DNA of 38,997 nt from a virus. Under the pieces are notes generated by a model, which was given only the letters and a program-made list of their open reading frames with translations, searched no databases and was not told the DNA's origin. The DNA is taken from positions 1-38,997 of the IMG/VR virus record IMGVR_UViG_3300029571_000023; one strand, written 5' to 3'. Numbering within the stretch: the stretch's first letter is position 1; each line of letters begins with the position of its first letter. Made by a program: the position numbers and the translations under genes. Shown piece after piece: positions 1 through 38,997 of the stretch.

Positions 1-87
1 AAGACTGCACGTTTATAGCAAAGATGGACGCGCAGTCGGAACACGGAAAAGCTATCTTCGGAGGCGGGCTATTGCTTTCTGAGAAAG
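1..87. repeat. 87-bp terminal overlap identical to 38911..38997 (circular-assembly signature)
   Basis: Read directly: both copies are identical. The overlap lies inside a CDS, so it is an assembly overlap rather than a physical end. Confidence 0.95.
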
Positions 88-197
88 CTGCAGCCGAGAA
101 AGCTGCAGCCGAGAAAGCTGCAGCCGAGAAAGCTGCAGCGCACATTTGGGAACTGTCAGAACGGGAAAGGCATATTGTTGCAAAACTAGGTGAATAA
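1..197 (+). CDS. C-terminal end of the DNA methyltransferase that starts at 38301 (wraps the circular junction)
   Basis: The frame entering from 38301..38997 continues (codons at 3,6,...) to TAA 195-197: ..FIAKMDAQSEHGKAIFGGGLLLSEKAAAEKAAAEKAAAEKAAAHIWELSERERHIVAKLGE*. Confidence 0.7.
   Translation, partial: DCTFIAKMDAQSEHGKAIFGGGLLLSEKAAAEKAAAEKAAAEKAAAHIWELSERERHIVAKLGE
81..140 (+). repeat. 4 x 15-bp tandem repeat GAGAAAGCTGCAGCC, in frame, encoding (EKAAA)4
   Basis: Units at 81-95, 96-110, 111-125 and 126-140. The last unit differs by one synonymous base. Each unit carries CTGCAG. Confidence 0.95.
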
Positions 198-1965: not shown

Positions 1966-2346
1966 GTGGCGAATAAGCAGGAAAAGACGAAAGAACAGCG
2001 TATCCGCGCAGAGAAAGCGCGACTCAAGCGGATTTACAAAACGCTGCCGAAAGAAGCGGCGGGAACTGTCGCGGGGCTGATTGACCAGGCGGCTTTTATG
2101 CGCGTCGAGTGTGAGGACATGGCAGAGGACCTGCGGGAAAACGGATGGACGGAACCGTTCCGGCAATCGGAACGGCTGGAACCGTATGACCGGGCGCGCC
2201 CCATTGGTCAGGCGTACAACTCCACCAACGCGAACTACCAGAAAATCATCAAGCAGCTCACGACGCTCCTGCCGAAGCCGGACACCGCGCCGCGGCAGGA
2301 AGACGACGGATTTGGAAGTTTCGTCCGGGAGCGTGATGAAGCGTGA
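1966..2346 (+). CDS. terS: Terminase small subunit, P27-family-like
   Basis: GTG start after AGGAGG. 126 aa, basic N-terminus, central LIDQAAFMRVECEDMAEDL.. pattern. Overlaps the TerL start. Confidence 0.7.
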   Translation: MANKQEKTKEQRIRAEKARLKRIYKTLPKEAAGTVAGLIDQAAFMRVECEDMAEDLRENGWTEPFRQSERLEPYDRARPIGQAYNSTNANYQKIIKQLTTLLPKPDTAPRQEDDGFGSFVRERDEA

Positions 2347-4100
2347 ATCTCACACGATATCCGGAAACGTACAATCCGATACTCGAGTATTGGCAGGCTA
2401 TACAGGATGGGCGGGAAACCGTCAGCCTGAAAGTGCAGAAAACATACCGGCACGTTGTAGAACAGCTCGAAGCTACAGAATCTGAGTTTTACTACTCGCC
2501 GAAACGTGCCAACCATGTGCTTGAGTTTTTTGAGAACTACTGCCACCACTCCAAAGGCAAAGCGGGCGGGCAGCTCGTCAAATTAGAGCTTTGGGAAAAG
2601 GCTCTGCTGGCGACGATCTTTGGCTTTGTCGACATTGAGGGCAACCGGCAATATCACGAGGCGGTCCTGATTGTCGGCAAGAAAAACGGCAAGTCGCTGC
2701 TCGCGTCCGGCGTAGGGCTATATCTGCAAATGGCGGACGGAGAGGCAGGACCGGAGGTCTACGCGGTAGCCACAAAACGCGATCAGGCAAAGATCATCTG
2801 GCAAGAAGCAAGGCGCATGGTACAGAAGTCGCCGGCGCTGCGCAAACGGACGCGCTGCCTGGTCGGCGAGATAGACAGCGATTATAACGACGGCGTATTT
2901 AAGCCGCTATCGTCTGACAGCGACACGCTTGACGGCTTGAACATCCACGGCGCGATGATGGATGAGATCCACCAGTGGAAAAACGGGCGCCCGCTATATG
3001 ACATTATTGCCGATGGCGATCAGGCGCGCGCGCAGCCGCTGCGTTTTATCACGTCCACTGCGGGTGTTATCCGCGAGGACATCTACGACGAAAAGTACGA
3101 AGAAGCCGAGCGCATTATCAACGGCTATGAAGATCCGGACGGGTACCACGACCCGCGCCGGATTGCGTTTATCTATGAGCTTGACAAGCGCAGCGAGTGG
3201 ACCGATGAAGCCTGCTGGAAGAAAGCAAACCCGGGTCTCGGCACGATCAAGAGCTACACGGCGCTCAAGGAGCGCGTCGAGCGGGCAAAGAAGAATCCGG
3301 CGCTCGTCAGGAATCTCGTCTGCAAGGATTTCAACATACGCGAAACATCTTCCGAGGCGTGGCTCAACTTTGAACAGCTGGACAACCGAGACACCTTCCA
3401 GTTGGACAAAGAAAACCGCCGTATGATCTGGACACACCACATGACCGACGGGCAGACGCAGGAGCGAATCCTATCCTACCCGCGTTATGGCATCGGAGGC
3501 GCGGACCTCTCCAAGACGACGGACCTGACGGCGGGGAAGGTTCTGTTCCAGGTGCCGGAGTTACCGGACATCCTGTTTGTCCTCTCCATGTACTGGCTGC
3601 CGCAGGAGCTTTTGGAAAAGCGCGTGAATGAGGACAAGATACCGTATGACAAGTGGCATGAGCGCGGATTGGTCCGGCTATCAGAGGGAAACAAGATCCG
3701 ATATGAGGACGTAAAAACATGGTTTGTCGAGGTGCAGGAAGACCTCGATATTTTTATACCATTCGTCGGCTATGATGCATGGTCTGCGTCCTACTGGACA
3801 GACAGCATGGCAGACTACTTTGGAGCCGAAGCGATGATACCGGTGCACCAGGGCGTGAAGACCCTGTCCGAGCCGATGAAGCGCTGCGGAAATGATCTGG
3901 AGTCCAAGCGGATTGTGTACAACAACAATCCAGTTGACAAGTGGTGCCTTGCAAACACCGCTTACGACGAGGACAAAAACGGCAATATCCAGCCGCACAA
4001 AACGAACAAGTCGACACGCCGCATAGACGGCACGGCGGCGCTGCTCGACGCCTACGCGATCTACGATCAAAAGCAGGCGGAATACACAAGTATGCTCTAG
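2343..4100 (+). CDS. terL: Terminase large subunit
   Basis: 585 aa. Walker A-like VGKKNGKS, DEIHQW (Walker B-like), C-terminal nuclease region. Canonical position. Confidence 0.9.
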   Translation: MNLTRYPETYNPILEYWQAIQDGRETVSLKVQKTYRHVVEQLEATESEFYYSPKRANHVLEFFENYCHHSKGKAGGQLVKLELWEKALLATIFGFVDIEGNRQYHEAVLIVGKKNGKSLLASGVGLYLQMADGEAGPEVYAVATKRDQAKIIWQEARRMVQKSPALRKRTRCLVGEIDSDYNDGVFKPLSSDSDTLDGLNIHGAMMDEIHQWKNGRPLYDIIADGDQARAQPLRFITSTAGVIREDIYDEKYEEAERIINGYEDPDGYHDPRRIAFIYELDKRSEWTDEACWKKANPGLGTIKSYTALKERVERAKKNPALVRNLVCKDFNIRETSSEAWLNFEQLDNRDTFQLDKENRRMIWTHHMTDGQTQERILSYPRYGIGGADLSKTTDLTAGKVLFQVPELPDILFVLSMYWLPQELLEKRVNEDKIPYDKWHERGLVRLSEGNKIRYEDVKTWFVEVQEDLDIFIPFVGYDAWSASYWTDSMADYFGAEAMIPVHQGVKTLSEPMKRCGNDLESKRIVYNNNPVDKWCLANTAYDEDKNGNIQPHKTNKSTRRIDGTAALLDAYAIYDQKQAEYTSML

Positions 4101-4110
4101 GAGTGACAAC

Positions 4111-5313
4111 ATGGGATTTTTTAAAAACCTCCTCGAAAACATCACAACGACAAAGCGTGTCTCGACCGTGCAAATGGTACAGGAGCGCGGAAACGGCTTT
4201 TACAGCTACAACGGCAAAATGTATCAGTCGGACATTGTCCGCGCTTGCATCCGCCCGAAGATCAAGGCAATCGGAAAGCTGACGGCAAAGCACATCCGGG
4301 AGACGATCACCGCAGACGCGCGGAAGATTGCCGTCAATCCGGAGCCGTATATCCGGTTTTTGCTGGAGGAGCCGAACCAATACATGACGGGGCAGCTGTT
4401 GCAGGAAAAGCTTGCTGCGCAGCTGATTCTCAACAACAACGCTTTTGCCGTTATCATGCGCGACGAAAACGGATTTCCGAACGCCATATTCCCGGTTGCG
4501 GCGATGCAGGCGGACGCCGTCTATGACGCGGGCGGGAATCTATACCTGAAATTTTACATGCAAAACGGGAACGTCCTGACGTTCGCCTACGACGATGTGA
4601 TCCACCTGCGCGGGGATTTTTACGAAAACGACATCTTCGGAGACCCGATCGCGCCGGCAATCGTGCCGCTGATGGAGATTGTCACAACGACGGATCAGGG
4701 CATCGTCAAGGCAATCCGGAACAGCGCCGTCGTACGGTGGCTGCTGATGTTCGCCTCGTCGATGCGTTCGGAGGATATCAAGCAGCGGGCGCAGGACTTT
4801 GCAGATAGCTTTCTAAACGTGTCGAACGGAACAGGCGTTGCGGCGGTCGACGCAAAGGCAGAGGCAAAGCAGATTGACCCGAAGGATTATGTGCCAAACG
4901 CGCAGCAGATGGACAAGACCACGCAGCGCATTTATGCCCTGTTTAACACCAACCAGCAGATTGTCACGTCGATTGCCAACGAAAACGAGCAGAATGCCTA
5001 TTTTGATGCCGAGATTGAGCCGGTCCTGAAACAGCTGAGTGGTGAGTACACCCGCAAACTATTTTCAAGGCGCGAGCGCGGCTGCGGAAACCGCATCGTT
5101 TTTGAGGCGTCGGCGTGGGATTTTGCGTCGACAACAACAAAGCTAAATCTGCTGCAAATGGTCGACCGCGGCGCGCTGACGCCAAACGAGTGGAGGCGCG
5201 CCTTTAATCTCGCTCCGGTTGACGGCGGAGATAAGCCGATTCGCAGGCTTGACACGCAGCCGGTCGACCGGAATACAACGCAGATCACGCAGAAGGGAGA
5301 TGATAACGCATGA
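4111..5313 (+). CDS. Portal protein (HK97-family-like)
   Basis: 400 aa directly after TerL, SD TAGGAGTG, followed by the protease and capsid genes. Confidence 0.85.
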   Translation: MGFFKNLLENITTTKRVSTVQMVQERGNGFYSYNGKMYQSDIVRACIRPKIKAIGKLTAKHIRETITADARKIAVNPEPYIRFLLEEPNQYMTGQLLQEKLAAQLILNNNAFAVIMRDENGFPNAIFPVAAMQADAVYDAGGNLYLKFYMQNGNVLTFAYDDVIHLRGDFYENDIFGDPIAPAIVPLMEIVTTTDQGIVKAIRNSAVVRWLLMFASSMRSEDIKQRAQDFADSFLNVSNGTGVAAVDAKAEAKQIDPKDYVPNAQQMDKTTQRIYALFNTNQQIVTSIANENEQNAYFDAEIEPVLKQLSGEYTRKLFSRRERGCGNRIVFEASAWDFASTTTKLNLLQMVDRGALTPNEWRRAFNLAPVDGGDKPIRRLDTQPVDRNTTQITQKGDDNA

Positions 5314-6005
5314 AGATCAGCATTCGCGGACCGATTGTGTCCAGCAACACACACCGATTTTACCAGTTTTACGGGATGGAGGCGACAAGCCCGAAATCCG
5401 TAGCAGATGCGCTTGCAAAAGGCGCGGGAGAGCGGGCGGAAGTGGAAATCAACTCGGGCGGCGGCGAAATTTTCGCGGCAAGCGAGATATACACAGCGCT
5501 GCGCAATTACGCCGGCGGCGTACACATCCGCATTGTCGGGTTGGCGGCGTCCGCCGCGTCGATCATTGCGATGGCAGGCGAGTCGGAAATGACGCCGACC
5601 GGAATGATGATGATCCACAACGTACAGACGAGCGCCGACGGTGACTACCGCCAGATGGAGCATACCGCAGGGGTCCTGCGGGACGCCAACCACGCGATCA
5701 CGTTGGCGTACATGGCAAAGACCGGGAGGCCCGAGCAGGAAATTGCCGCCATGATGGATGCGGAAACGTGGATCACGGCAGACAGGGCGGTGGAGCTGGG
5801 ACTCGTTGACCGGGTAATGGAGCTGGGCGGTGAGCAGAAGCCGCTGGCGGCAGACTTTTACTCCGGCATGCTCAGCGAGGACGCGCTGCGGCGCGCAGAG
5901 AATTTCATGAAAAGCCAGGCAAAAGAGCCTGGTTTTTTTATGCCCGAGCGGGCGCAGGTAGAAGCAAAACTGAAATTTTTAAAACTTAAAGGAGAACTAA
6001 AATGA
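5310..6005 (+). CDS. Prohead serine protease, ClpP-like (S14)
   Basis: EINSGGGEIFAASEIY..GLAASAASIIAMAG..MMMIHN is a ClpP-family signature. Lies between portal and capsid. Confidence 0.85.
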   Translation: MKISIRGPIVSSNTHRFYQFYGMEATSPKSVADALAKGAGERAEVEINSGGGEIFAASEIYTALRNYAGGVHIRIVGLAASAASIIAMAGESEMTPTGMMMIHNVQTSADGDYRQMEHTAGVLRDANHAITLAYMAKTGRPEQEIAAMMDAETWITADRAVELGLVDRVMELGGEQKPLAADFYSGMLSEDALRRAENFMKSQAKEPGFFMPERAQVEAKLKFLKLKGELK

Positions 6006-7216
6006 CGAAAGAACTTTACAACACCAAGCGCAAGCAGCTCATGGACGAAGCCCAGAAGCTGCTGGACGAAAGCAAGACTGCCGAGGCGCAGGCAAAAATG
6101 AAGGAAGTCGAAGAACTCGACGCCAAGTTTGAGGAAGAGGCAAAGATTCAGGCGAACCTCAACGCCCTCGCAGGCGCGCAGGCGCAGAACCCGGCAGCCG
6201 CGGCGCAGTCCGTCAACCTGACCGGAAGCGCAAAGCCGCAGGAAGCGCTCGACATGTACGACACAGACGACTACAAGCGAGCCTTCATGAACTACGTCCT
6301 TGCGGGCAAGAAGATCCCCGCCGAGCTGACCAACGCAGACGCAAACACGAAGACCTCCGACGTCGGCGCGGCGATTCCGACGACCACGCTCCAGAAGATC
6401 TACGAAAAGATCGAGTCGACAGGCATGATTCTGCCGCGCGTGACGCACACGTCCTACAAGGGCGGCGTGACGGTGCCGACCAGCTCGGCGAAGCCGACCG
6501 CATCGTGGGTCAGTGAGGGAGTAGGCTCTGACAAGCAGAAAAAGGCGCTCGGCTCCATCACGTTTGCCTATCACAAACTGCGCTGCGCGATCTCCATGTC
6601 GCTGGAAGTGTCCATCGTGACATATCCGATGTTTGAATCGCAGTTTGTGGCAAACGTCGCAGAGGCGATGGTAAAAGCGGAGGAGCAGGCAATCATCAGC
6701 GGCTCCGGCTCCGGGCAGCCGAAAGGCATCATCAAGGAGACCGTTGTGACTGGTCAGAACATCGACATTGCGGCAGCGACTACGGCTATCGCCTACACCG
6801 ACCTTGTCAAGGCGGAGGCAGCACTCCCGCAGGCATACGACACCGACGCGGTGTGGTGCATGACGAAGAAGACCTTCTTCGAGCAGATTGTCGGCATGGT
6901 CGACGACAAGAAGCAGCCCGTCGCTCGCGTCAATTACGGAATGAGCGGCAAGCCGGTCTACTCGCTCTTCGGGCGCGAGGTCGTCCTCGTCGGCGACTAT
7001 CTGCCGTCCTTCGCAGCGAGCGTGACTGCGGATACAATCTTCGCCTTTATTTTCAATTTCAAGGATTACCTCTGGAATGAGAATCTCGGCATGACGTTCC
7101 GCAAGTACACCGATAACGCAACCGACGACGAAGTGACCGTTGCGCTGGCGCTCGTCGACGGCAAGGTGGTCGACAAAAACAGCCTCGTAACGCTGACCAA
7201 GAAAAAGGCGGGCTAA
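6002..7216 (+). CDS. Major capsid protein, HK97-type, with N-terminal delta/scaffold-like coiled coil
   Basis: 404 aa. E/K/A-rich helical N-terminus, then a typical HK97 MCP body. SD AAAGGAG. Confidence 0.85.
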   Translation: MTKELYNTKRKQLMDEAQKLLDESKTAEAQAKMKEVEELDAKFEEEAKIQANLNALAGAQAQNPAAAAQSVNLTGSAKPQEALDMYDTDDYKRAFMNYVLAGKKIPAELTNADANTKTSDVGAAIPTTTLQKIYEKIESTGMILPRVTHTSYKGGVTVPTSSAKPTASWVSEGVGSDKQKKALGSITFAYHKLRCAISMSLEVSIVTYPMFESQFVANVAEAMVKAEEQAIISGSGSGQPKGIIKETVVTGQNIDIAAATTAIAYTDLVKAEAALPQAYDTDAVWCMTKKTFFEQIVGMVDDKKQPVARVNYGMSGKPVYSLFGREVVLVGDYLPSFAASVTADTIFAFIFNFKDYLWNENLGMTFRKYTDNATDDEVTVALALVDGKVVDKNSLVTLTKKKAG

Positions 7217-9720: not shown

Positions 9721-11451
9721 ATGCCGAACATCAACACAAAGTTTTCGCTTTCCGGCGAAAAGGAATACAAAGCCGCGATCTCGCAGATCGGCGACGGCAT
9801 GCGGGTTCTCAACTCCGAGATGCGCAAGGTCGAGAGCGAATACGCAAAAAACGCCGACAGCGTTGAGGCGCTGACGAAGGTAAACGACGTCCTTGAGCGG
9901 AAGATCTACTCGCAGACGGAAAAGATCGAGACGCTGAAAGCGGCATTGCAGACGTCAGCCGAGAAATACGGTGTGGCAGATAAGCGCACCATGGCGTGGC
10001 AGGCGAGCCTCAACAACGCCGAAGCCGAGCTGAACAAGATGAACGCCGAGCTGGAGGAGAACAACGACGCGCTTGAGAAAGCTGGCGCGAACGGGACAAA
10101 GTTCCAGCAGGCGATGGAGAAAATCAAGGACTCCGTCGCAAAGGCGAAAGAGGAAGGTACGGGCGCGAAGGGCATCTTTGCCAACCTCAAGGAATCCTTT
10201 GCACACGGCAAGGGCGAAGCGGTCGGTCTCGGAGACGCAATCGGAGGCGCGGCGGATAAACTCGGCATTCAGCTTCCCGAGGGCGCCAGCAAGGCGCTGA
10301 ACTCCCTCAACGGCATCAGTGCCGGAACGGCTGCGGTGGCCGGCGGCTTTGCGGCGGTCGCGGCTGCCATCGTCAAAACGGAGAAGGCGCTCATTGACAT
10401 GACGAAGGAGGCGGCGGAGGGCGCGAAGGAGATCGAGACTTTTGCCTCCATCACAGGGCAGAGCGAGCAGCAGGTGCAGCAGATGCAGTACGCATCCGAG
10501 AAGCTCGGCGTATCGTATGATCGCGTGCGGGACTCGCTCAAGGAAATCACGAACAAAATGCAGGAAGCCGAGAACGGCTCGGCGGACACAGCTGCGGCAT
10601 TTGATAAGTTAAAGGTCAGCTTGCGCGGGCAAAACGGCGAGCTTCGAGACGCGCAGGACGTTTTTCTTGACGTCATCGACGCGCTCGGGAACGTCGAAAA
10701 CCAGTCAGAGCGCGACGCGCTTGCTATGGACCTCATGTCCGAGAGCGCGCAGGAGCTGAACCCGATGATCGAAGCCGGGCGCGAAACGATTCAGCAGTAC
10801 GCGCAGGCGGCAAGCGACATGGGTCTTGTGCTGGAGGAGGACGAGCTGAAGGCACTGACGGACGTGCAAAGCGCGTTCTACGATCTCGAGCAGCAGCAGA
10901 AGGCGACCAAAAACCAGCTGGCGGCGGAGTTCGCGCCGTATCTTACCTCGTTCTACAGTGACATGTCGGAGGCGACGCGCACGTTCGGGCAGACGCTGGA
11001 GGACAGCGGCATTGTGTCGGCGTTTGGGTCGCTGCTGGAGTTTGTGGGCGAGCTGATCGACCCGACAAGCGTACTCGGGCAGACGACGCTTCCGATTCTG
11101 GAGGGCTCGCTTGAGGGCGTGGCGCTGGTGCTGGCAACCGTTGTGGACAGCCTTCGTGCCATCACAGGCTTGCTGGATGGTCTGGCGGACTGGATCGACA
11201 CCGGAAGCACGCAGACGTGGAAGGACGCTTTCAGCTTTAAGGCAACGAACGCCGTGCTTGACATCTGGGATTCCAGCGGCTCTAATCCATCTCCCTCTCG
11301 CGGCGGCGGCAGCTTCAGCGGAGGCTTCGGCGGCGGAACGAGCGTGACGAATAACTATTACACGGTGAGCGGCGTGAACGTGAAGACGGTAAACCAGGTG
11401 GCGGACGCTGCGGAGAATTCCCGGCAGCATAACCGGAAGTACGGAGGATGA
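9721..11451 (+). CDS. Tape measure protein
   Basis: 576 aa, long coiled-coil N-terminal half, hydrophobic Ala/Gly segments, Gly-rich C-terminus. Canonical position. Confidence 0.8.
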   Translation: MPNINTKFSLSGEKEYKAAISQIGDGMRVLNSEMRKVESEYAKNADSVEALTKVNDVLERKIYSQTEKIETLKAALQTSAEKYGVADKRTMAWQASLNNAEAELNKMNAELEENNDALEKAGANGTKFQQAMEKIKDSVAKAKEEGTGAKGIFANLKESFAHGKGEAVGLGDAIGGAADKLGIQLPEGASKALNSLNGISAGTAAVAGGFAAVAAAIVKTEKALIDMTKEAAEGAKEIETFASITGQSEQQVQQMQYASEKLGVSYDRVRDSLKEITNKMQEAENGSADTAAAFDKLKVSLRGQNGELRDAQDVFLDVIDALGNVENQSERDALAMDLMSESAQELNPMIEAGRETIQQYAQAASDMGLVLEEDELKALTDVQSAFYDLEQQQKATKNQLAAEFAPYLTSFYSDMSEATRTFGQTLEDSGIVSAFGSLLEFVGELIDPTSVLGQTTLPILEGSLEGVALVLATVVDSLRAITGLLDGLADWIDTGSTQTWKDAFSFKATNAVLDIWDSSGSNPSPSRGGGSFSGGFGGGTSVTNNYYTVSGVNVKTVNQVADAAENSRQHNRKYGG

Positions 11452-21031: not shown

Positions 21032-21052
21032 TTCATCATTATGGAGGAAAGT

Positions 21053-21733
21053 ATGGTGCGAAAGACTGCAATTCTGGTAGATGGTGCGTTTTACAGAAAG
21101 CGCGCAGCGTTTCTTCGGGGTGCAAAGACTCCTGAAGAACGTGCAAAAGAACTGTATGCTTACTGCATGGCGCATATCCGAGATGAAGGGGCGCACGCAG
21201 ACTACCACGAAGAGCGCGAACTTTACCGCATTTTTTATTATGACTGCCCTCCGCTCAAGAAGACCGTTTATCACCCTGCCCTGAAACGCAACATAGATTT
21301 TGGGAAATCGGATACATATTCGTGGGCAAATGCATTTTTTGAAGAATTGAAAAAGAAACGCAAGGTTGCGCTCCGAATGGGGGCGTTGTCCGATGCGAAT
21401 GCACACTTTTCCCTTAAACCTGATGCAACAAAAGCAATCTGCCAAGGGAAGCGAAATGTTTCTGACTTGACCGAGAATGACTTTTCTATTTCGTTCAATC
21501 AGAAAGGTGTCGATATGCGTATCGGCTTAGACATAGCTTCGTTGGCATACAAAAAACAGGTGGATCAGATCATCCTCATCGCTGGCGACAGCGATTTTGT
21601 GCCAGCTGCAAAGCTTGCAAGAAGAGAAGGCATTGATTTTATCCTTGATCCAATGGAGGCGACGATTCGTGACGATCTCTTTGAGCATATTGATGGGCTG
21701 AAATCTCTTTGGAAAAAGCAGCCAAGTAAATAA
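21053..21733 (+). CDS. NYN-domain (LabA/PIN-like) putative ribonuclease
   Basis: AILVDGAFY.. at the N-terminus and ..NQKGVDMRIGLDIASLAYKKQVDQIILIAGDSDFVPAAKLARREGIDFIL match NYN hallmarks (D..., KGVD, SGDSDF). Confidence 0.75.
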   Translation: MVRKTAILVDGAFYRKRAAFLRGAKTPEERAKELYAYCMAHIRDEGAHADYHEERELYRIFYYDCPPLKKTVYHPALKRNIDFGKSDTYSWANAFFEELKKKRKVALRMGALSDANAHFSLKPDATKAICQGKRNVSDLTENDFSISFNQKGVDMRIGLDIASLAYKKQVDQIILIAGDSDFVPAAKLARREGIDFILDPMEATIRDDLFEHIDGLKSLWKKQPSK

Positions 21734-24345: not shown

Positions 24346-25368
24346 TCAGAATTTGCTATCCATCTTTGCTGCTGCAACCTCGATGGTATTGTCAAGCACG
24401 TCGGTATAAATGTCCATCGTGGTCGAAAGCTGCGCGTGACCGAGGAGCGTCTGGGCGGTTTTATAATCCACGCCCGCGTCGTGCAGCGCGGTCGCGTAAC
24501 CGTGCCGGATCTCATGCGGTGTGACCGTAACGCCGCTCTCGGTCTGGTAGGCGGCGTACAATCTTGTGACGCGATGGTTCATCAGTGGGGTTTCGCCGCC
24601 ATCATCAGAAAAAATATACCCATGCTTTTTGTCGGGCAGGACAGCAGCCAGAGCCGATAAAAGCGGTATGACGCGGTTGCCTGCCTCTGTTTTCGGACTT
24701 TTGATATACGGTCGTGCGCCGATGTAATAGGCGGACTTATTGATTCGAACCTTCTTTGCTTTGCGGTCGATATCCTCATAGCGCAGCGCAAGCGCTTCGC
24801 CGCGCCGGCAGCCGGTGTAATAGATCAGATACGCAAAAAGCCCGAACGGCTTATCAAGGCTGTTTTTGATCAACTGGATCTGTTCTGCTTTGGGTGCGCG
24901 GCGCTTTTTCTGCGGCAGGTTCTTCGGCAGCAGGACCGCCTCCGCCGGATTGTACATGATGTAGCCCTCGCGCTGGGCTTTGTTTAAGATCTGGCGGATG
25001 ATCTGCCGCTGCGTGGCGACGGTCTTTTTGGCATACGTTTTTGCAAAGCGGTTGATGTACTTTTCCACATCCTTCGCCGTGATCGACGAAACGTCTTCTT
25101 TGCCGAATTCCGCAACTGCCCGGCTGTAGGCTGGCTTGTAATTCTTCTGGCTGTTGTTCGCAAGTGTTGGTTCGATCTCGTTCCACCAGGCGTGCGCTAC
25201 GTTCTCAAAGGTCTCCGTCTTCCCGGATGCGAGATCGGCGCGATAGCTTTTGACTTTCTCCCAGACCTCGCGGTCAGTCTTCCCCCGGAAGGCCTTGCGT
25301 TTGCCGTTAATTTTGATAATCGTTTCATGCAGCCCGTCAGGGCGAACGTAATATTTCGGGATTGCCAT
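24346..25368 (-). CDS. int: Tyrosine integrase
   Basis: ATG 25368 after GGAGG (the track start 25404 lacks an SD). C-terminus ..TPHEIRHGYATALHDAGVDYKTAQTLLGHAQLSTTMDIYTDV carries the R..HxxR..Y signature. Confidence 0.9.
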   Translation of the reverse strand: MAIPKYYVRPDGLHETIIKINGKRKAFRGKTDREVWEKVKSYRADLASGKTETFENVAHAWWNEIEPTLANNSQKNYKPAYSRAVAEFGKEDVSSITAKDVEKYINRFAKTYAKKTVATQRQIIRQILNKAQREGYIMYNPAEAVLLPKNLPQKKRRAPKAEQIQLIKNSLDKPFGLFAYLIYYTGCRRGEALALRYEDIDRKAKKVRINKSAYYIGARPYIKSPKTEAGNRVIPLLSALAAVLPDKKHGYIFSDDGGETPLMNHRVTRLYAAYQTESGVTVTPHEIRHGYATALHDAGVDYKTAQTLLGHAQLSTTMDIYTDVLDNTIEVAAAKMDSKF

Positions 25369-25385
25369 AAAAAACCTCCAAAGAT

Positions 25386-25421
25386 GCCGCTCCGGTTTCT
25401 CCAACCGGGGCGGCTTTTTTT
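25386..25421. terminator. Hairpin terminator between the regulator and int (T7 run on the plus strand)
   Basis: GCCGCTCCGG-tttctccaa-CCGGGGCGGC followed by TTTTTTT. Confidence 0.55.
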
Positions 25422-25422
25422 G

Positions 25423-25815
25423 TTATGTTCGGAACCAACCGATATTTGGGGTCAGGATATCGACCGCAAAAAGAAGGAATATAAACGCAGTAAGGCAGAC
25501 GCAGACAACGAAGAAACGTTTGTTCCAGCGCTCCTTCCGCGCAATGGCGCGTTGCAGATCGTCAATACGTGTCTCGTAAAGCTCGCCTTTCGTGCGCTCG
25601 CACATGCCTCCTGCATGCTGCGCAGCATCCGCGCCGACGCCGAGCGCGTCGCAGATGGCGGTAATTGTAGAAGCAGATGCGTTTGAGCCTTTTGAGGAAA
25701 GGACGCGCGAGACGGTTGACTCAGAAATTTGTGCAAGTTGCGCAAGGTCCTTGTTTGTTAGGTTTTCCTCCTCCATTTTGGCAATACATCTGGATATCAG
25801 CTGCTCAAAATCCAT
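25423..25815 (-). CDS. XRE-family HTH regulator with a C-terminal transmembrane anchor
   Basis: 130 aa. LTNKDLAQLAQISESTVSRVL (HTH), a coiled segment, then FFVVCVCLTAFIFLLFAVDIL (TM). No SD before the ATG. Confidence 0.6.
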   Translation of the reverse strand: MDFEQLISRCIAKMEEENLTNKDLAQLAQISESTVSRVLSSKGSNASASTITAICDALGVGADAAQHAGGMCERTKGELYETRIDDLQRAIARKERWNKRFFVVCVCLTAFIFLLFAVDILTPNIGWFRT

Positions 25816-26005: not shown

Positions 26006-26935
26006 TCAATCACCATTCTCGCCGAGCGGAGAGTCCCATACAGCATCCCAAAAATCCGTCTCGTTTATGATCTGGACTTTTCCGCCGGCGCGCCGCACGG
26101 ACATTGCCGCCTCAATCTTGCGCCCATAGCAGGAGTAAGCCCAGCACGGATTGCCAGCATTGCCGACAATCAAATAGTCGGTTTTGCGTGAGACGTTGGA
26201 GATAAATGTACCACCGAGCCGCTCAATTTCCTCGACAATTTCCTTGCGCGTGGCTCTGTATGACTCGCCGGTAAAGCAAAAGACTTTCCCGTCAAATGTA
26301 AGGTCCGGGCAATAGGCGCAAATGCCATCAATGGAGTATTTTTTTCGCAAAGCCTCAAAATCCGGCTCGTGCAGGTTTATGGAGTCTTTAAAGTCGACCA
26401 CATTGCTGCAAAACGCGAGAAGGGAGTTGCGCTCGTCAGCGGTTATGACTCCATCCTCAAGGATTGTGTGCAGGAGCGAGTTTAGCTCGTCAAATGGATA
26501 TGTGCCTTGCAGGTAGTCGTTCGAGGTGAGCCAATCGGACAGGGTGCGGATCTCTTTATCGCTGATGTCAGAATCCGCCATGATACCGTGAATCATGCCA
26601 TGCAAAAATTGCACGGACGAAGTGACGATATTATAGTAGCTGGAGTTGTCGGCAAAATTACCACAAAGCCAAAGGATGTTTTGACGCTCGTCGTCGTCGA
26701 TACGATCATCCTTGATCGCCTCCTCAATTATAGGGATAAGCTCCGAAAACGGGTGACGATCGCGCAGATTCGCATGAATAAGGCACCAATTGGCAAGCTC
26801 GCTTACCTCGGCGGTGCTGACATCGCCGCTGGAAGAAATACCAGCTACAATGCCGCGAAGCATATTGATCGCCTTGTGCAGCTCGGCAGGCTTCGTAAAC
26901 TGACGGTATTCGTCCGGATTTTTGATCTGAGACAT
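26006..26935 (-). CDS. Two TerB-like helical repeats + C-terminal BRCT domain protein
   Basis: 309 aa. Internal duplication: LRGIVAGISSSGDVSTAEVSELANW..PFSELIP..DDDERQNILWLC versus LHGMIHGIMADSDISDKEIRTLSDWL..PFDELNS..TADERNSLLAFC. C-terminus KVFCFTGESYRATRKEIVEEIERLGGTFISNVSRKTDYLIVGN.. is LigA-type BRCT-like. Own TATAAT at 26971-26976. Confidence 0.65.
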   Translation of the reverse strand: MSQIKNPDEYRQFTKPAELHKAINMLRGIVAGISSSGDVSTAEVSELANWCLIHANLRDRHPFSELIPIIEEAIKDDRIDDDERQNILWLCGNFADNSSYYNIVTSSVQFLHGMIHGIMADSDISDKEIRTLSDWLTSNDYLQGTYPFDELNSLLHTILEDGVITADERNSLLAFCSNVVDFKDSINLHEPDFEALRKKYSIDGICAYCPDLTFDGKVFCFTGESYRATRKEIVEEIERLGGTFISNVSRKTDYLIVGNAGNPCWAYSCYGRKIEAAMSVRRAGGKVQIINETDFWDAVWDSPLGENGD

Positions 26936-27069: not shown

Positions 27070-27192
27070 ATGGAGGACGAAGTGGAAAACACGGAAGAAT
27101 ACGTCATTGGAGAGATCAAGCGCTTGTTGGAGCGGGCAACGCCGGACCAGCTGATTATTATACTGCGGATTCTGCAAAACATCGTAAAATAA
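27070..27192 (+). CDS. Possible 40-aa acidic helical micro-protein
   Basis: MEDEVENTEEYVIGEIKRLLERATPDQLIIILRILQNIVK*. Protein-like composition, but the SD spacing is poor (GGAGGA directly abuts the ATG). Confidence 0.25.
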   Translation: MEDEVENTEEYVIGEIKRLLERATPDQLIIILRILQNIVK

Positions 27193-27224: not shown

Positions 27225-27704
27225 CTACAGACCAAGAAGTTGTTTTTCAATTTCGGCAATATCCGGGAAAACAAGGCGGGCACCTTTGCGCTGCAAGGCG
27301 AGCAGTTTCCGCGCCCGCTTTGAAAGCTCGGCTTCTAGCGCCGCGTCTACGCGGACAGGAAGGCTGGTGCGCGCATCTATGTACTCGCCGGAAATATAGC
27401 GTTCCGTAACGGGACACATGTTTTGGAGCAGAAACGCCTTTTTGCGACCAAGGACTTCGCCAAAAAGGATGGTGTCGCATTTCCCGTAGCGCTGGACCTT
27501 CTTCTGGTAAATAGCCTCGAACTTTTCAACGCGGGAAGAAATCGGAATCAGCCAGAATAGCCGGGTAGCTTCGTCGAAGAAAGCGTAAAAGCACGGACGA
27601 CCGTGCGGAACGCCGTTTACTGGCTCCTTGTTTTGCATAAGCCCTTCGCTCGGGACATCTTGATAATATGCGTCCGACAGAAAATAGAAGTGACCGATCT
27701 CCAT
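27225..27704 (-). CDS. Type III toxin, ToxN/AbiQ/CptN-like endoribonuclease
   Basis: ATG 27704 after GGAGAG, 159 aa. MEIGHFYFLSDAYYQDVPSEGLMQNKEPVNGVPHGRPCFYAFFDEATRLFWLIPISSRVEKF..KKAFLLQNMCPVTERYI follows the ToxN/AbiQ layout (FY..s..Y, RP, W.aPlSS.K, lNM.Pv). The track start 27893 runs across the repeats. Confidence 0.7.
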   Translation of the reverse strand: MEIGHFYFLSDAYYQDVPSEGLMQNKEPVNGVPHGRPCFYAFFDEATRLFWLIPISSRVEKFEAIYQKKVQRYGKCDTILFGEVLGRKKAFLLQNMCPVTERYISGEYIDARTSLPVRVDAALEAELSKRARKLLALQRKGARLVFPDIAEIEKQLLGL

Positions 27705-27721
27705 ATATCTCTCCAAGAAAA

Positions 27722-27747
27722 AAGGCTCTGCCGGACGGCAAAGCCTT
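27722..27747 (-). terminator. Terminator/attenuator between the antitoxin repeats and the toxin gene
   Basis: 11-bp stem (one mismatch) AAGGCTTTGCC-GTCC-GGCAGAGCCTT followed by U6 on the minus strand. This is the ToxIN-type layout. Confidence 0.7.
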
Positions 27748-27754
27748 ATAATTT

Positions 27755-27846
27755 GCGCTCGCCAATATTTCAGTTGCATAGCGAGAAGCAACAAACATTT
27801 GGACTCGCCGTTATTTGAGTTGCATAGCGAGAAGCAACAAACATTT
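27755..27846 (-). ncRNA. Type III antitoxin RNA candidate: 2 x 46-nt tandem repeats
   Basis: Units 27755-27800 and 27801-27846 are 41/46 identical, with the last 29 nt identical. Minus-strand unit: AAAUGUUUGUUGCUUCUCGCUAUGCAACU(C/G)AAAUA... It contains an internal GUUGC/GCAAC hairpin. Confidence 0.75.
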
Positions 27847-27866
27847 GCAGATGATCTCTCATCTGC
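27847..27866. promoter_or_regulatory. Perfect palindrome GCAGATGA-TCTC-TCATCTGC at the predicted TSS
   Basis: Read directly. It lies between the -10 element and the first repeat unit. Confidence 0.5.
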
Positions 27867-27870
27867 CTCT

Positions 27871-27899
27871 AGTATATGCCACACGGTCAACAATGTAAA
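27871..27899 (-). promoter_or_regulatory. Promoter of the type III locus: TTTACA-17 nt-TATACT
   Basis: Minus strand: TTTACA (27894-27899), a 17-nt spacer, TATACT (27871-27876). Confidence 0.6.
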
Positions 27900-27990
27900 C
27901 TCGGAATGTTGTACGAAAAAACAAGCGAAAATTTTGATAAATCACAGATTTATTTACAATTCTGATACACATGAAAAACACCGGAGACGA

Positions 27991-28374
27991 TTATTCGTCC
28001 CCGGGCTTTTTTTGCAACTCTCCGACAAAAGCTTCGATTGCTGCCCACTTTTCAGGCGGCAGCGCCATCAAAAGCGAAATGAAGCGTTTGCGGAAGGAGT
28101 CGTCTGCGTCGGACATGATGTCCGTAACCAGAACGGCAAGTTCCTCATTCACACTGCGCTGCACGTACATTTCCCCGACGCCGTTTTCCAGCCATGCGAG
28201 AGAAACGTTAAATTCTCGGCAAATATCTGAAATCGTTCGCTCAGTTGGGATATACGTACCGGAGCATATCCTTGAAACGTGAGCCTGCGTCAAATGAATG
28301 CGGTCTGCAAATTTGGACTGTGTCAAACCTTGATCTTTGATTATAAACGCAATGCGCTCATTGATAGTATTCAC
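27991..28374 (-). CDS. CI-like XRE-family repressor
   Basis: GTG 28374, 8 nt after AAGGAGG. INERIAFIIKDQGLTQSKFADRIHLTQAHVSRICSG (HTH) plus a C-terminal helical domain. Divergent from a plus-strand promoter. Confidence 0.7.
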   Translation of the reverse strand: MNTINERIAFIIKDQGLTQSKFADRIHLTQAHVSRICSGTYIPTERTISDICREFNVSLAWLENGVGEMYVQRSVNEELAVLVTDIMSDADDSFRKRFISLLMALPPEKWAAIEAFVGELQKKPGDE

Positions 28375-28433
28375 AAAACCGACCTCCTTGTAGTTATAGG
28401 TTATCACATGGAGGAATAATTGTCAATCAAAAA

Positions 28434-38300: not shown

Positions 38301-38997
38301 ATGCAATGGCAGCAGGGATGCTTGTTTGATGACAACCAGGAGTATGACGCTTTCACGGAGAAATTCAAACCAAAGAAGACGACGGACGATTGCTATACGC
38401 CGCCGCTCGTTTATGATGCGATCCGGGATTGGGTATGCGGAGAGTACGGGATCGACCAGACCAGAATCGTGCGACCGTTCTATCCGGGCGGAGATTATGA
38501 ACGCTTTGACTACCCGGACGGCTGCGTCGTGCTGGACAACCCGCCGTTCTCAATTTTGAGCAGAATTTGTGAATTTTACATCGACAGAGGAATCGCATTT
38601 TTTCTTTTTGCGCCGTCACTCACATGCTTTAGCGGGCGCAGCGTAGTGATGCGGATGAACCACATTATTTGCGACGCCGACATTACATATGAGAATGGGG
38701 CAGTTGTTAGAACGGCGTTTGTGACGAGTTTCGGTGGTAAGATTGCGCAGACCGCGCCGACACTCAGAAAAGCAATCGAGCGGGCAATGCAGACGATCAA
38801 GGAGGGAATGAGGAAGGAATTACCAAAGTATACATATCCGGATTATGTTCTGACGGCAGCGATGATGCAAAAGTACGCACATTATGGGGTTGATTTTGCG
38901 GTGCAAAAAGAAGACTGCACGTTTATAGCAAAGATGGACGCGCAGTCGGAACACGGAAAAGCTATCTTCGGAGGCGGGCTATTGCTTTCTGAGAAAG
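38301..38997 (+). CDS. DNA methyltransferase, amino-MTase type (NPPF motif); continues at 1..197
   Basis: AGGAGGG SD. ..TTDDCYTPPLVYDAI.. and ..CVVLDNPPFSIL.. ((D/N)PP(F/Y) motif IV). The frame is open to the window end. Confidence 0.6.
   Translation, partial: MQWQQGCLFDDNQEYDAFTEKFKPKKTTDDCYTPPLVYDAIRDWVCGEYGIDQTRIVRPFYPGGDYERFDYPDGCVVLDNPPFSILSRICEFYIDRGIAFFLFAPSLTCFSGRSVVMRMNHIICDADITYENGAVVRTAFVTSFGGKIAQTAPTLRKAIERAMQTIKEGMRKELPKYTYPDYVLTAAMMQKYAHYGVDFAVQKEDCTFIAKMDAQSEHGKAIFGGGLLLSEK
38911..38997. repeat. Second copy of the 87-bp terminal overlap
   Basis: Identical to 1-87. Confidence 0.95.

Follow-up and report, generated by a model that had tools for sequence, protein, structure and literature searches.

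The minus strand of the virus record IMGVR_UViG_3300029571_000023 (IMG/VR; positions 1 to 38,997, the whole 38,997-nt stretch being called the window hereafter) carries, between 27899 and 27225, a short tandem repeat followed by an open reading frame (ORF), which raises the question of whether this virus encodes a toxin–antitoxin (TA) pair of type III, to which family such a pair belongs and what it does on a phage. A sequence-only reading had proposed that the stretch is a phage-borne ToxIN/CptIN-like locus hidden under an over-extended ORF. The analysis reported here established the family of the toxin, the architecture of the locus, a pseudoknot by covariation, the phage context and purifying selection, and the locus is very probably a functional type III TA module of the CptIN family that a temperate phage carries among its lysogeny genes. 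Read along the minus strand, it comprises in order a promoter, a leader hairpin, two 46-nt units, a third AAAU boundary, a terminator, a Shine–Dalgarno (SD) sequence and a 159-aa ORF (Table 1).

The predicted toxin was compared with protein families and structures. The results showed that it matches the NCBIfam equivalog model NF047359 ('type III toxin-antitoxin system CptIN family toxin') with 198.7 bits against a cutoff of 90 (E = 4.1e-59) and over profile positions 1–150 of 150, and that phmmer against the PDB sequences finds CptN of Eubacterium rectale (4RMO_A, E = 8.6e-19, residues 5–154). No match to the toxin was found in Pfam-A at E ≤ 1, including ToxN_toxin, or by PADLOC; the protein is therefore not a ToxN or AbiQ at the sequence level, and its membership of the CptN family is unaffected by that negative. 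An AlphaFold2 model built from a 37-sequence alignment (mean pLDDT 93.6, pTM 0.90) had 4RMO_A as its top PDB match in Foldseek (E = 5.4e-12, template-modelling (TM) scores 0.83/0.85), so that structure prediction, proposed earlier as a check, again pointed to CptN. The next structural neighbours were E. coli ToxN, AbiQ and P. atrosepticum ToxN (TM ~0.64–0.68), followed by MazF/Kid toxins, which is the same ordering of folds as described in the CptIN structure paper (PMC4627078). Thus the resemblance to ToxN, AbiQ and CptN claimed by the sequence-only reading stands for CptN by family model and by 4RMO_A, but for ToxN and AbiQ it extends to the fold (TM ~0.65) and not to the sequence.

In a large protein collection, 393 homologues were found at E ≤ 1e-5, mostly of 158–162 aa. 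M1 is an invariant column of the family alignment, and the invariant or near-invariant columns F6 Y7, R36 P37, W51 P54 S56 S57 K61 and L92 Q94 N95 M96 C97 P98 coincide with the motifs that had been picked out by eye (FY..S..Y, RP, W.IPISS..K and LLQNMCPV). Residues S56/S57 and Y108 align with S51/S52 and Y104 of the E. rectale toxin, CptN(Er), and are conserved (≥90% or invariant). Taken together, sequence comparison and the structural model indicate that the 159-aa protein is a bona fide CptN and not a ToxN; NCBI's pipeline would name the gene correctly.

A mechanical ORF list gives this gene as 222 aa from TTG 27893, 63 codons longer than the 159-aa ORF. If that were the true gene, the repeats underneath would not be an antitoxin but a chance or regulatory tandem duplication, such as an attenuator or leader, an explanation that we consider extremely improbable. 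In its favour are the mechanical existence of the longer ORF and some database homologues that are likewise extended, to 172–215 aa. However, TTG 27893 sits upstream of the predicted transcription start, with the −35 box on one side and the −10 box on the other; the homologues align from M1 and mostly have the length given above; and public gene calls of the identical protein always give 159 aa (at least 24 metagenome contigs in 28 index blocks). Furthermore, the extension crosses the terminator and the repeat units, whose conservation takes the form of base-pair covariation and is not codon-like. The 222-aa ORF is a mechanical artefact, and the locus is hidden in the naive ORF list but not in the public gene calls. 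The SD sequence and the 159-aa ORF had been correctly recognised.

Tandem Repeats Finder (TRF) reported a 46-nt × 2.2 repeat at 27751..27849 (score 163), the top-scoring tandem repeat in the window, and a 20-nt core of the unit is present exactly twice in the window against 0 expected. TRF and alignment confirmed two head-to-tail 46-nt repeats, starting with AAAU and identical at 41 of 46 positions. The sequence-only reading had placed the identity in the last 29 nt of each unit; in the RNA sense it is the first 29 nt that are identical, and the five differences are all confined to the L2 loop and the 3′ tail. As had been noted, the terminator is preceded by the start of a third unit, 5 nt long (AAAUU). 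With 46 nt and 2.2 copies, the repeat falls within the 40–48 nt and 1.9–3.4 copies of the founding cptIN survey (PMC3401426, Blower et al. 2012), in agreement with the earlier view that the locus is CptIN-like rather than ToxIN-like.

Related loci were collected for comparison, 80 from species-representative genomes (80 of 221 matched) and 46 from IMG/VR viral contigs. The latter came from an alignment-based search, which found 46 IMG/VR contigs encoding CptN relatives; a search of viral contigs with the single protein gave no match. TRF detected a repeat of 45–48 nt in 1.9–2.3 copies in 82 of 120 usable upstream regions, in 76 cases of exactly 46 nt, and these repeats end ~50 nt ahead of the start codon. 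Two units are present in the TRF-negative loci as well, but with greater divergence between them. A sequence-only hidden Markov model (HMM) found exactly two units in 116 of 125 regions, one unit in five and three in one.

Unit 1 of the window reads AAAUGUUU-GUUGC-UU-CUCGC-UAU-GCAAC-UCAAAUAACG-GCGAG-UCC. The internal GUUGC/GCAAC hairpin named by the sequence-only reading is one stem of this unit (S1), but a second stem, CUCGC/GCGAG (S2), had been overlooked, and the unit is hence an H-type pseudoknot with two 5-bp stems; the A-rich L2 loops of the two units are UCAAAUAACG and UGAAAUAUUG. Across the related loci, a flexible stem-finder was over-fitted, matching terminators and random segments, and was replaced by sequence-only HMM units, MAFFT alignment and counting of pairs for a named structure. 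For this, 142 unique units were aligned by MAFFT without reference to any structure, and pairs were counted for S1 (columns 9–13/24–28) and S2 (columns 16–20/40–44), which cross each other. The result showed that 99.1% of the cells in these stems form standard pairs, compared to 20–31% when the partners were slid by 1–3 columns. Compensatory double changes were present in 8 of the 10 stem pairs (129 cells), 0 of 500 column shuffles equalled any observed pairing measure, and RNAalifold independently recovered S1. These data from aligned sequences indicate that the CptI unit is an H-type pseudoknot supported by covariation. Rfam gave no relevant match at E ≤ 10 in 27500–28100 and none at gathering score in the whole window, so that of the suggested Rfam and covariation analysis it was the covariation that gave support. 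A C·A mismatch in S1 of the TRF consensus arose only because two different units had been merged.

The motif YC-AAAU(G/A/U) is present at each of the three unit boundaries, in the window as well as across the family. Cleavage at CA^AAU is predicted, that is, between 27846 and 27845, 27800 and 27799, and 27754 and 27753, with a register of ±1 nt, by analogy with the E. rectale antitoxin CptI(Er), because the cut of the latter at GA^AAG leaves a 3′ A with a cyclic phosphate (PMC4627078). Such cleavage would release two 46-nt units, with the first 5 nt of the third unit as a third processing site.

In most related loci, units 1 and 2 differ systematically (median 36/46 identical). The commonest pairing, in 48 of 114 loci, combines S1 GUUGC/GCAAC in unit 1 with S1 GUCGC/GCGAC in unit 2, and the window belongs to a minority (9/114) with GUUGC/GCAAC in both. 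Two unit types are seen in the subfamily, unit 1 having a U-A centre of S1 and an AAAUA-type L2 and unit 2 a C-G centre and a Y-AAAA-type L2. Of the 67 units with U-A as the central pair of S1 (columns 11/26), 66 have A in column 33 and the other has a gap; of the 75 with C-G, none has A in column 33 and all have A in column 35. This coupling of S1 with L2 could be tertiary covariation (A-minor or base-triple), like the L2–S1 contacts of CptI(Er), or it could come from inheritance of two unit lineages. The differing units may form heterotypic toxin–RNA rings or may be two anciently diverged unit types.

Upstream of the units, the perfect palindrome with an N4 loop reported at the predicted start site was confirmed. 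Its RNA hairpin has a minimum free energy (MFE) of −12.6 kcal/mol, among the most stable in the related loci; the whole 151-nt leader folds at z = −4.25 relative to shuffles, and both this hairpin and the terminator are present in the MFE and centroid structures of the whole leader. The hairpin ends at the C directly before the first AAAU. A stable hairpin ending 1–2 nt before the first CAAAU was found in 77 of 117 related loci, compared to 15 of 117 control segments. Across loci it takes the form of a 6–8-bp stem with a purine-rich tetraloop, and its stems vary and compensate between loci (AGAUAG/CUAUCU, CAGUAA/UUACUG, GAGCAG/UUGCUU and others). By these comparisons, the palindrome is the conserved leader hairpin of this CptI subfamily. 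It might protect the 5′ end or present the first processing site. No description of it was found in the passages of the CptIN papers that were consulted.

The other elements recur as well: a promoter-like site at the corresponding relative position and an SD sequence are each present in 109 of the 117 related loci, and in 115 the repeats are separated from the ATG by a terminator-like hairpin. In the window, the terminator described earlier as an 11-bp stem with a U6 run has its 11 pairs, but two of the six U can pair with AA at the base of the stem.

Table 1. Features of the cptIN locus and of the phage genome in the window
Feature	Position	Strand	Basis
Predicted sigma-70/sigmaA-type promoter of the cptI-cptN transcript, TTTACA-17 nt-TATACT	27871..27899	-	Consensus scan, 10/12 matches
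Leader hairpin, 8-bp stem, GAGA loop, GCAGATGA-GAGA-TCATCTGC	27847..27866	-	Perfect 8+4+8 palindrome
CptI antitoxin unit 1, 46 nt	27801..27846	-	TRF; nhmmer unit match, E = 2.5e-8; covariation
CptI antitoxin unit 2, 46 nt	27755..27800	-	TRF, unit HMM, covariation; 41/46 identical to unit 1
Third C-AAAU boundary (AAAUU, partial third unit), predicted 3′ processing site freeing unit 2	27750..27754	-	Boundary motif
Intrinsic terminator between repeats and toxin gene: 11 pairs, 4-nt loop, U-run	27722..27747	-	Terminator scan, MFE and centroid folds
SD sequence GGAGAG	27714..27709	-	4 nt before ATG at 27704
cptN toxin gene, 159 aa, predicted endoribonuclease (stop at 27225)	27225..27704	-	NF047359, 4RMO_A match, AlphaFold2 model
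cI-like HTH_3 repressor gene, directly upstream of cptIN, same strand	27991..28407	-	Pfam HTH_3/HTH_19; PHROG transcriptional repressor/regulator families
Terminator of the repressor gene	28004..27981	-	Terminator scan
309-aa protein, C-terminal BRCT domain, phrog_3989 (function unknown)	26006-26935	-	Pfam/PHROG
Second HTH protein	25423-25815	-	Pfam/PHROG
Tyrosine integrase, end of lysogeny module	24346..25404	-	Pfam Phage_integrase; phrog_1 integrase, 1.1e-67
Large terminase	2343-4100	+	Pfam/PHROG
Portal	4111-5313	+	Pfam/PHROG
Major head protein	6002-7216	+	Pfam/PHROG
Tape measure	9721-11451	+	Pfam/PHROG

An exact 87-bp direct repeat occupies both ends of the window (1..87 and 38911..38997), which indicates the circular assembly of an entire phage genome, ~38.9 kb long with 55% GC. 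The statement that a temperate phage carries the locus between cI and int was correct: terminase, portal, head, tape-measure, integrase and HTH_3 repressor genes were all found, and the window is a complete circular genome of temperate siphovirus type. The lysogeny module runs on the minus strand in the order repressor, cptIN, BRCT gene, HTH gene and integrase, and the early genes (HTH_17, DNA methylase, DUF1064) diverge from it on the plus strand from ~29.1 kb. The terminator of the repressor gene lies just upstream of the cptIN promoter site, and because the repressor gene has this terminator of its own, cptIN is taken to be an independent transcription unit. A tblastn search of deposited phage genomes (INPHARED, 50,697 records) found no CptN, and megablast of half the window gave trivial matches only, and thus the phage is not among the GenBank phage records. 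A perfect 15-nt × 3.9 tandem repeat (GAGAAAGCTGCAGCC) lies at 81..139 (+), partly within the terminal overlap.

An identical cptN is also present on a 38,965-bp metagenome scaffold, and a 55.8-kb contig of ERZ28614643 has the prophage at one of its ends. Relatives at 98% keep the arrangement of repressor, cptIN, further genes, HTH and integrase. The slot between cptN and the HTH gene varies in close relatives, holding the 309-aa BRCT gene, a 439-aa gene, a 112-aa gene or none. The BRCT gene could be another lysogen-expressed accessory or defence gene. A 40-aa ORF at 27070..27192 (+), convergent to cptN and ending 33 nt from its stop codon, had no Pfam or PHROG match; it is called as a gene of 36–40 aa in all close relatives, even where the neighbouring cargo gene is different. 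In addition, a 230-aa NYN (RNase) domain protein is encoded at 21041..21733 (+) between the tail genes and the integrase, and a DUF7841 protein adjoins the integrase in contigs with the identical cptN; these two proteins may be further accessory genes.

Constraint on the cassette was assessed with relatives at two distances. In the 98% relatives, the 196-nt upstream region is identical to that of the window, and the 4 nonsynonymous and 0 synonymous differences in cptN are too few to interpret. Compared to an 87%-identical chromosomal relative (P0004/L134), the synonymous rate dS is ~1.56 (saturated) and the nonsynonymous rate dN 0.077, giving a dN/dS of ~0.05; the hairpin-plus-repeat region differs at ~7 of 118 nt, none of them in stems. 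These sequence comparisons showed that cptN is under strong purifying selection. The chromosomal relative (ENA ERZ15610113 NODE_4918, 4400-5083) has the same leader hairpin and the same stems as the window. Its neighbours on the bacterial chromosome are two-component systems, and phage genes are absent for ~5 kb around it, suggesting that the cptIN cassette was recently exchanged between chromosome and phage.

The chromosomal relative also bears on a counter-defence role, in which the phage CptI RNA neutralises a host CptN during infection, in the manner of pseudo-ToxI in phage PhiTE, and the presence of the toxin gene is incidental. In favour of it, Clostridia, the likely host clades, commonly have related CptIN loci, and this relative, with its near-identical units and identical stems, is located on a bacterial chromosome. 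However, the toxin gene is intact and strongly constrained, the module sits in the lysogeny module and not in an early lytic region, and CptI antitoxins are reported to be highly cognate-specific (PMC4627078). We regard this role as improbable.

The phage context recurs. In the IMG/VR viral contigs checked, terminase, portal or tape-measure genes are adjacent to cptIN, and in one of them (L085) cptIN lies between the large terminase and a serine recombinase. A group of ~15 near-identical IMG/VR loci (L103–L117, L121, L126) has cptIN at another place: in L103 (2766-12346) it occupies a ~2.9-kb gap between pieces of a tape-measure gene, and the flanking ORFs match consecutive parts of phrog_4211 (positions 291–764 and 772–946, then 945–1564), an arrangement that resembles a giant tape-measure gene interrupted by an insertion with cptIN. 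At least 7 related loci have an integrase nearby, a lower bound, as the search (tblastn and iterated HMMs of the window's integrase, large terminase, portal and major capsid protein) was insensitive.

By homology with the characterised systems, the processing, inhibitory complex, trigger and biological role of the module can be sketched as follows. A constitutive promoter would produce a short RNA of leader hairpin, two 46-nt CptI units and terminator, and occasional read-through of the terminator would produce the cptN mRNA, hence an excess of antitoxin RNA over toxin. The CptN endoribonuclease would cut the precursor at the three conserved CA^AAU junctions and would remain bound to the freed 46-nt H-type pseudoknots in a closed, inactive protein–RNA ring (2:2 if like that of E. 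rectale). Should transcription of the locus stop, through shut-off by a superinfecting phage or through prophage loss, the labile RNA would decay and free CptN would cleave cellular and/or phage RNAs, leading to growth arrest. The module would be expressed from the prophage alongside the repressor, and it most likely serves the lysogen as an abortive-infection (Abi)-type defence, the prophage as an addiction module, or both.

The two roles draw on different evidence. If CptIN is a lysogen-expressed Abi or superinfection defence, the transcription shut-off caused by an incoming phage would free CptN and abort the infection. For ToxIN, AbiQ and TenpIN, the sister families, this mode of action is established (PMC3401426, PMC5086642); the locus occupies a cargo slot of the lysogeny module whose neighbouring gene varies between close relatives, as is typical of prophage defence islands, and its independent promoter is compatible with expression in the lysogen. 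Set against these points is that no CptIN has been demonstrated to act in this way, and we judge this role to be nearly an even prospect. If instead the module acts in prophage addiction by post-segregational killing, it would kill or arrest cells that lose or excise the prophage and would give no defence against other phages. Plasmid stabilisation is the sole phenotype shown for a CptIN locus and Abi tests were negative (PMC4627078, PMC5086642), and the position of cptIN between repressor and integrase, with its own promoter, agrees with such a role. However, those Abi tests used coliphages in a heterologous host and are weakly informative (PMC3401426, discussion), the 87% relative has no mobile element to stabilise in its ordinary chromosomal context, and other phages carry the cassette beside the terminase or inside tail genes, which fits portable defence or 'moron' cargo equally well. 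Addiction without defence is a reasonable possibility, though we would not call it probable. A further proposal, which we put forward tentatively and hold to be rather unlikely as a whole, is that CptIN is a lysogen-expressed superinfection or Abi module and that, across the subfamily, its ring is heterotypic, containing one unit-1 and one unit-2 RNA, unlike the homotypic complex seen for the E. rectale CptIN. An anti-phage role in the lysogen, if true, would be the first natural-context defence function for the CptIN family.

Several points weigh against a functional module of this kind or against a role in defence. The promoter match alone is not beyond chance, since the 1.6-kb region contains 3 promoter-like sites compared to 2.1 expected from shuffles; the promoter call gains weight from its position and its conservation across the cptIN family. 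In the toxin, a gap stands opposite Asp81 of CptN(Er), and Ser85 is matched by Lys89, an invariant residue of the subfamily. These are the adenine-specifying residues of CptN(Er) (PMC4627078), and because they are not conserved, cleavage specificity may differ in detail from that of CptN(Er). Where the SSR motif has R58, the subfamily consensus has Q; the Arg of the catalytic triad is not numbered in the structure paper (PMC4627078). As to defence, the sequence-only reading had described such systems as abortive-infection modules. Abi activity is demonstrated for ToxIN and AbiQ, whereas two CptIN loci tested in E. coli gave no resistance to six coliphages (PMC3401426), and because anti-phage activity has not been demonstrated for any CptIN (PMC3401426, PMC4627078), a defence role is an extrapolation from ToxIN, AbiQ and TenpIN. 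With these points considered, we hold to the conclusion that the locus is very probably a functional CptIN module.

Among the type III TA families with a characterised structure, CptIN is the one understood least, and what it offers so far is a crystal structure and a plasmid-stabilisation phenotype, without a demonstrated anti-phage role or natural biological context. An intact, strongly constrained cptIN carried as cargo by a temperate gut phage gives a concrete setting in which to test the purpose of the family. The locus itself is a typical, ordinary CptIN locus that leaves the known mechanism unchanged and extends a known kind; this analysis adds a second stem, which gives the pseudoknot supported by covariation, as well as a leader hairpin conserved in the subfamily, three predicted processing sites and the recurrence of the phage context. 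From ~120 loci and 142 unique units, a CptI subfamily that has no Rfam match gains a covariation-supported secondary structure as well as a conserved leader hairpin.

The phage setting is new for the family in the literature searched, in which, with incomplete coverage, no report of a phage-borne cptIN was found. All 33 cptIN loci of the founding survey are chromosomal (PMC3401426), in contrast to that of the window. TA or Abi cargo in a prophage lysogeny module is by itself a well-established concept. A converting phage of Clostridium botulinum carries toxIN (PMC3401426); according to a 2025 survey, which adds tenpN in viral genomes, toxIN of a Clostridium phage had been the sole report of a type III system in phages (PMC12283969); and a prophage-borne AbiF/RCd22 RNA system is described in C. 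difficile (2025 preprint, bioRxiv 10.1101/2025.04.15.648962). These are likewise RNA-antitoxin TA or Abi cargo of phages and prophages, with proposed functions in defence and/or maintenance, but their toxins belong to families other than CptN.

ToxIN (P. atrosepticum, B. thuringiensis, E. coli) and AbiQ (L. lactis) follow the same logic as the window's locus, in that a processed repeat RNA inhibits an endoribonuclease toxin and a terminator lies in between, and ToxN and AbiQ share the Kid/MazF-like fold of the window's toxin at the TM scores given above. They differ from it in having no sequence similarity detectable with the Pfam ToxN_toxin and PADLOC models, in their demonstrated Abi activity, and in the antitoxin, as ToxI has units of 34–36 nt in 2.8–5.5 copies and forms 3:3 triangular complexes, unlike the 46 nt × 2.2 of the window.

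The closest known system is CptIN of Eubacterium (Agathobacter) rectale (PDB 4RMO), which was reported to form a 2:2 heterotetramer, to be self-processing and cognate-specific and to stabilise a plasmid, but not to confer Abi (PMC4627078, Rao et al. 2015). Its toxin is of the same family as that of the window by curated HMM, sequence and fold, and the two loci have the order of promoter, about two repeats of ~45 nt, terminator and toxin in common. The CptI(Er) unit, AAGUUU-ACCAC-UG-ACCGA-UAU-GUGGU-AUAUAAAU-GGUCGG-GUUGA (recovered from a primer, PMC4627078), has the topology of the window's unit: an H-type pseudoknot in which S1 has 5 bp and the junction 2 nt, the loops are UAU and an A-rich L2 of 9–10 nt, and the tails are single-stranded; in both, an A-rich junction lies at the processing site, which in the window is a predicted one. 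On the other hand, the window's CptN is only ~28% identical to CptN(Er) and does not conserve its Asp81 and Ser85, and its units are of 46 nt compared to 45 nt in CptI(Er), with unrelated stem sequences, as expected for cognate-specific antitoxins. Finally, cptI repeats are described in the literature as nearly perfect (PMC12283969), whereas in the subfamily to which the window's CptIN belongs the two units are usually non-identical.

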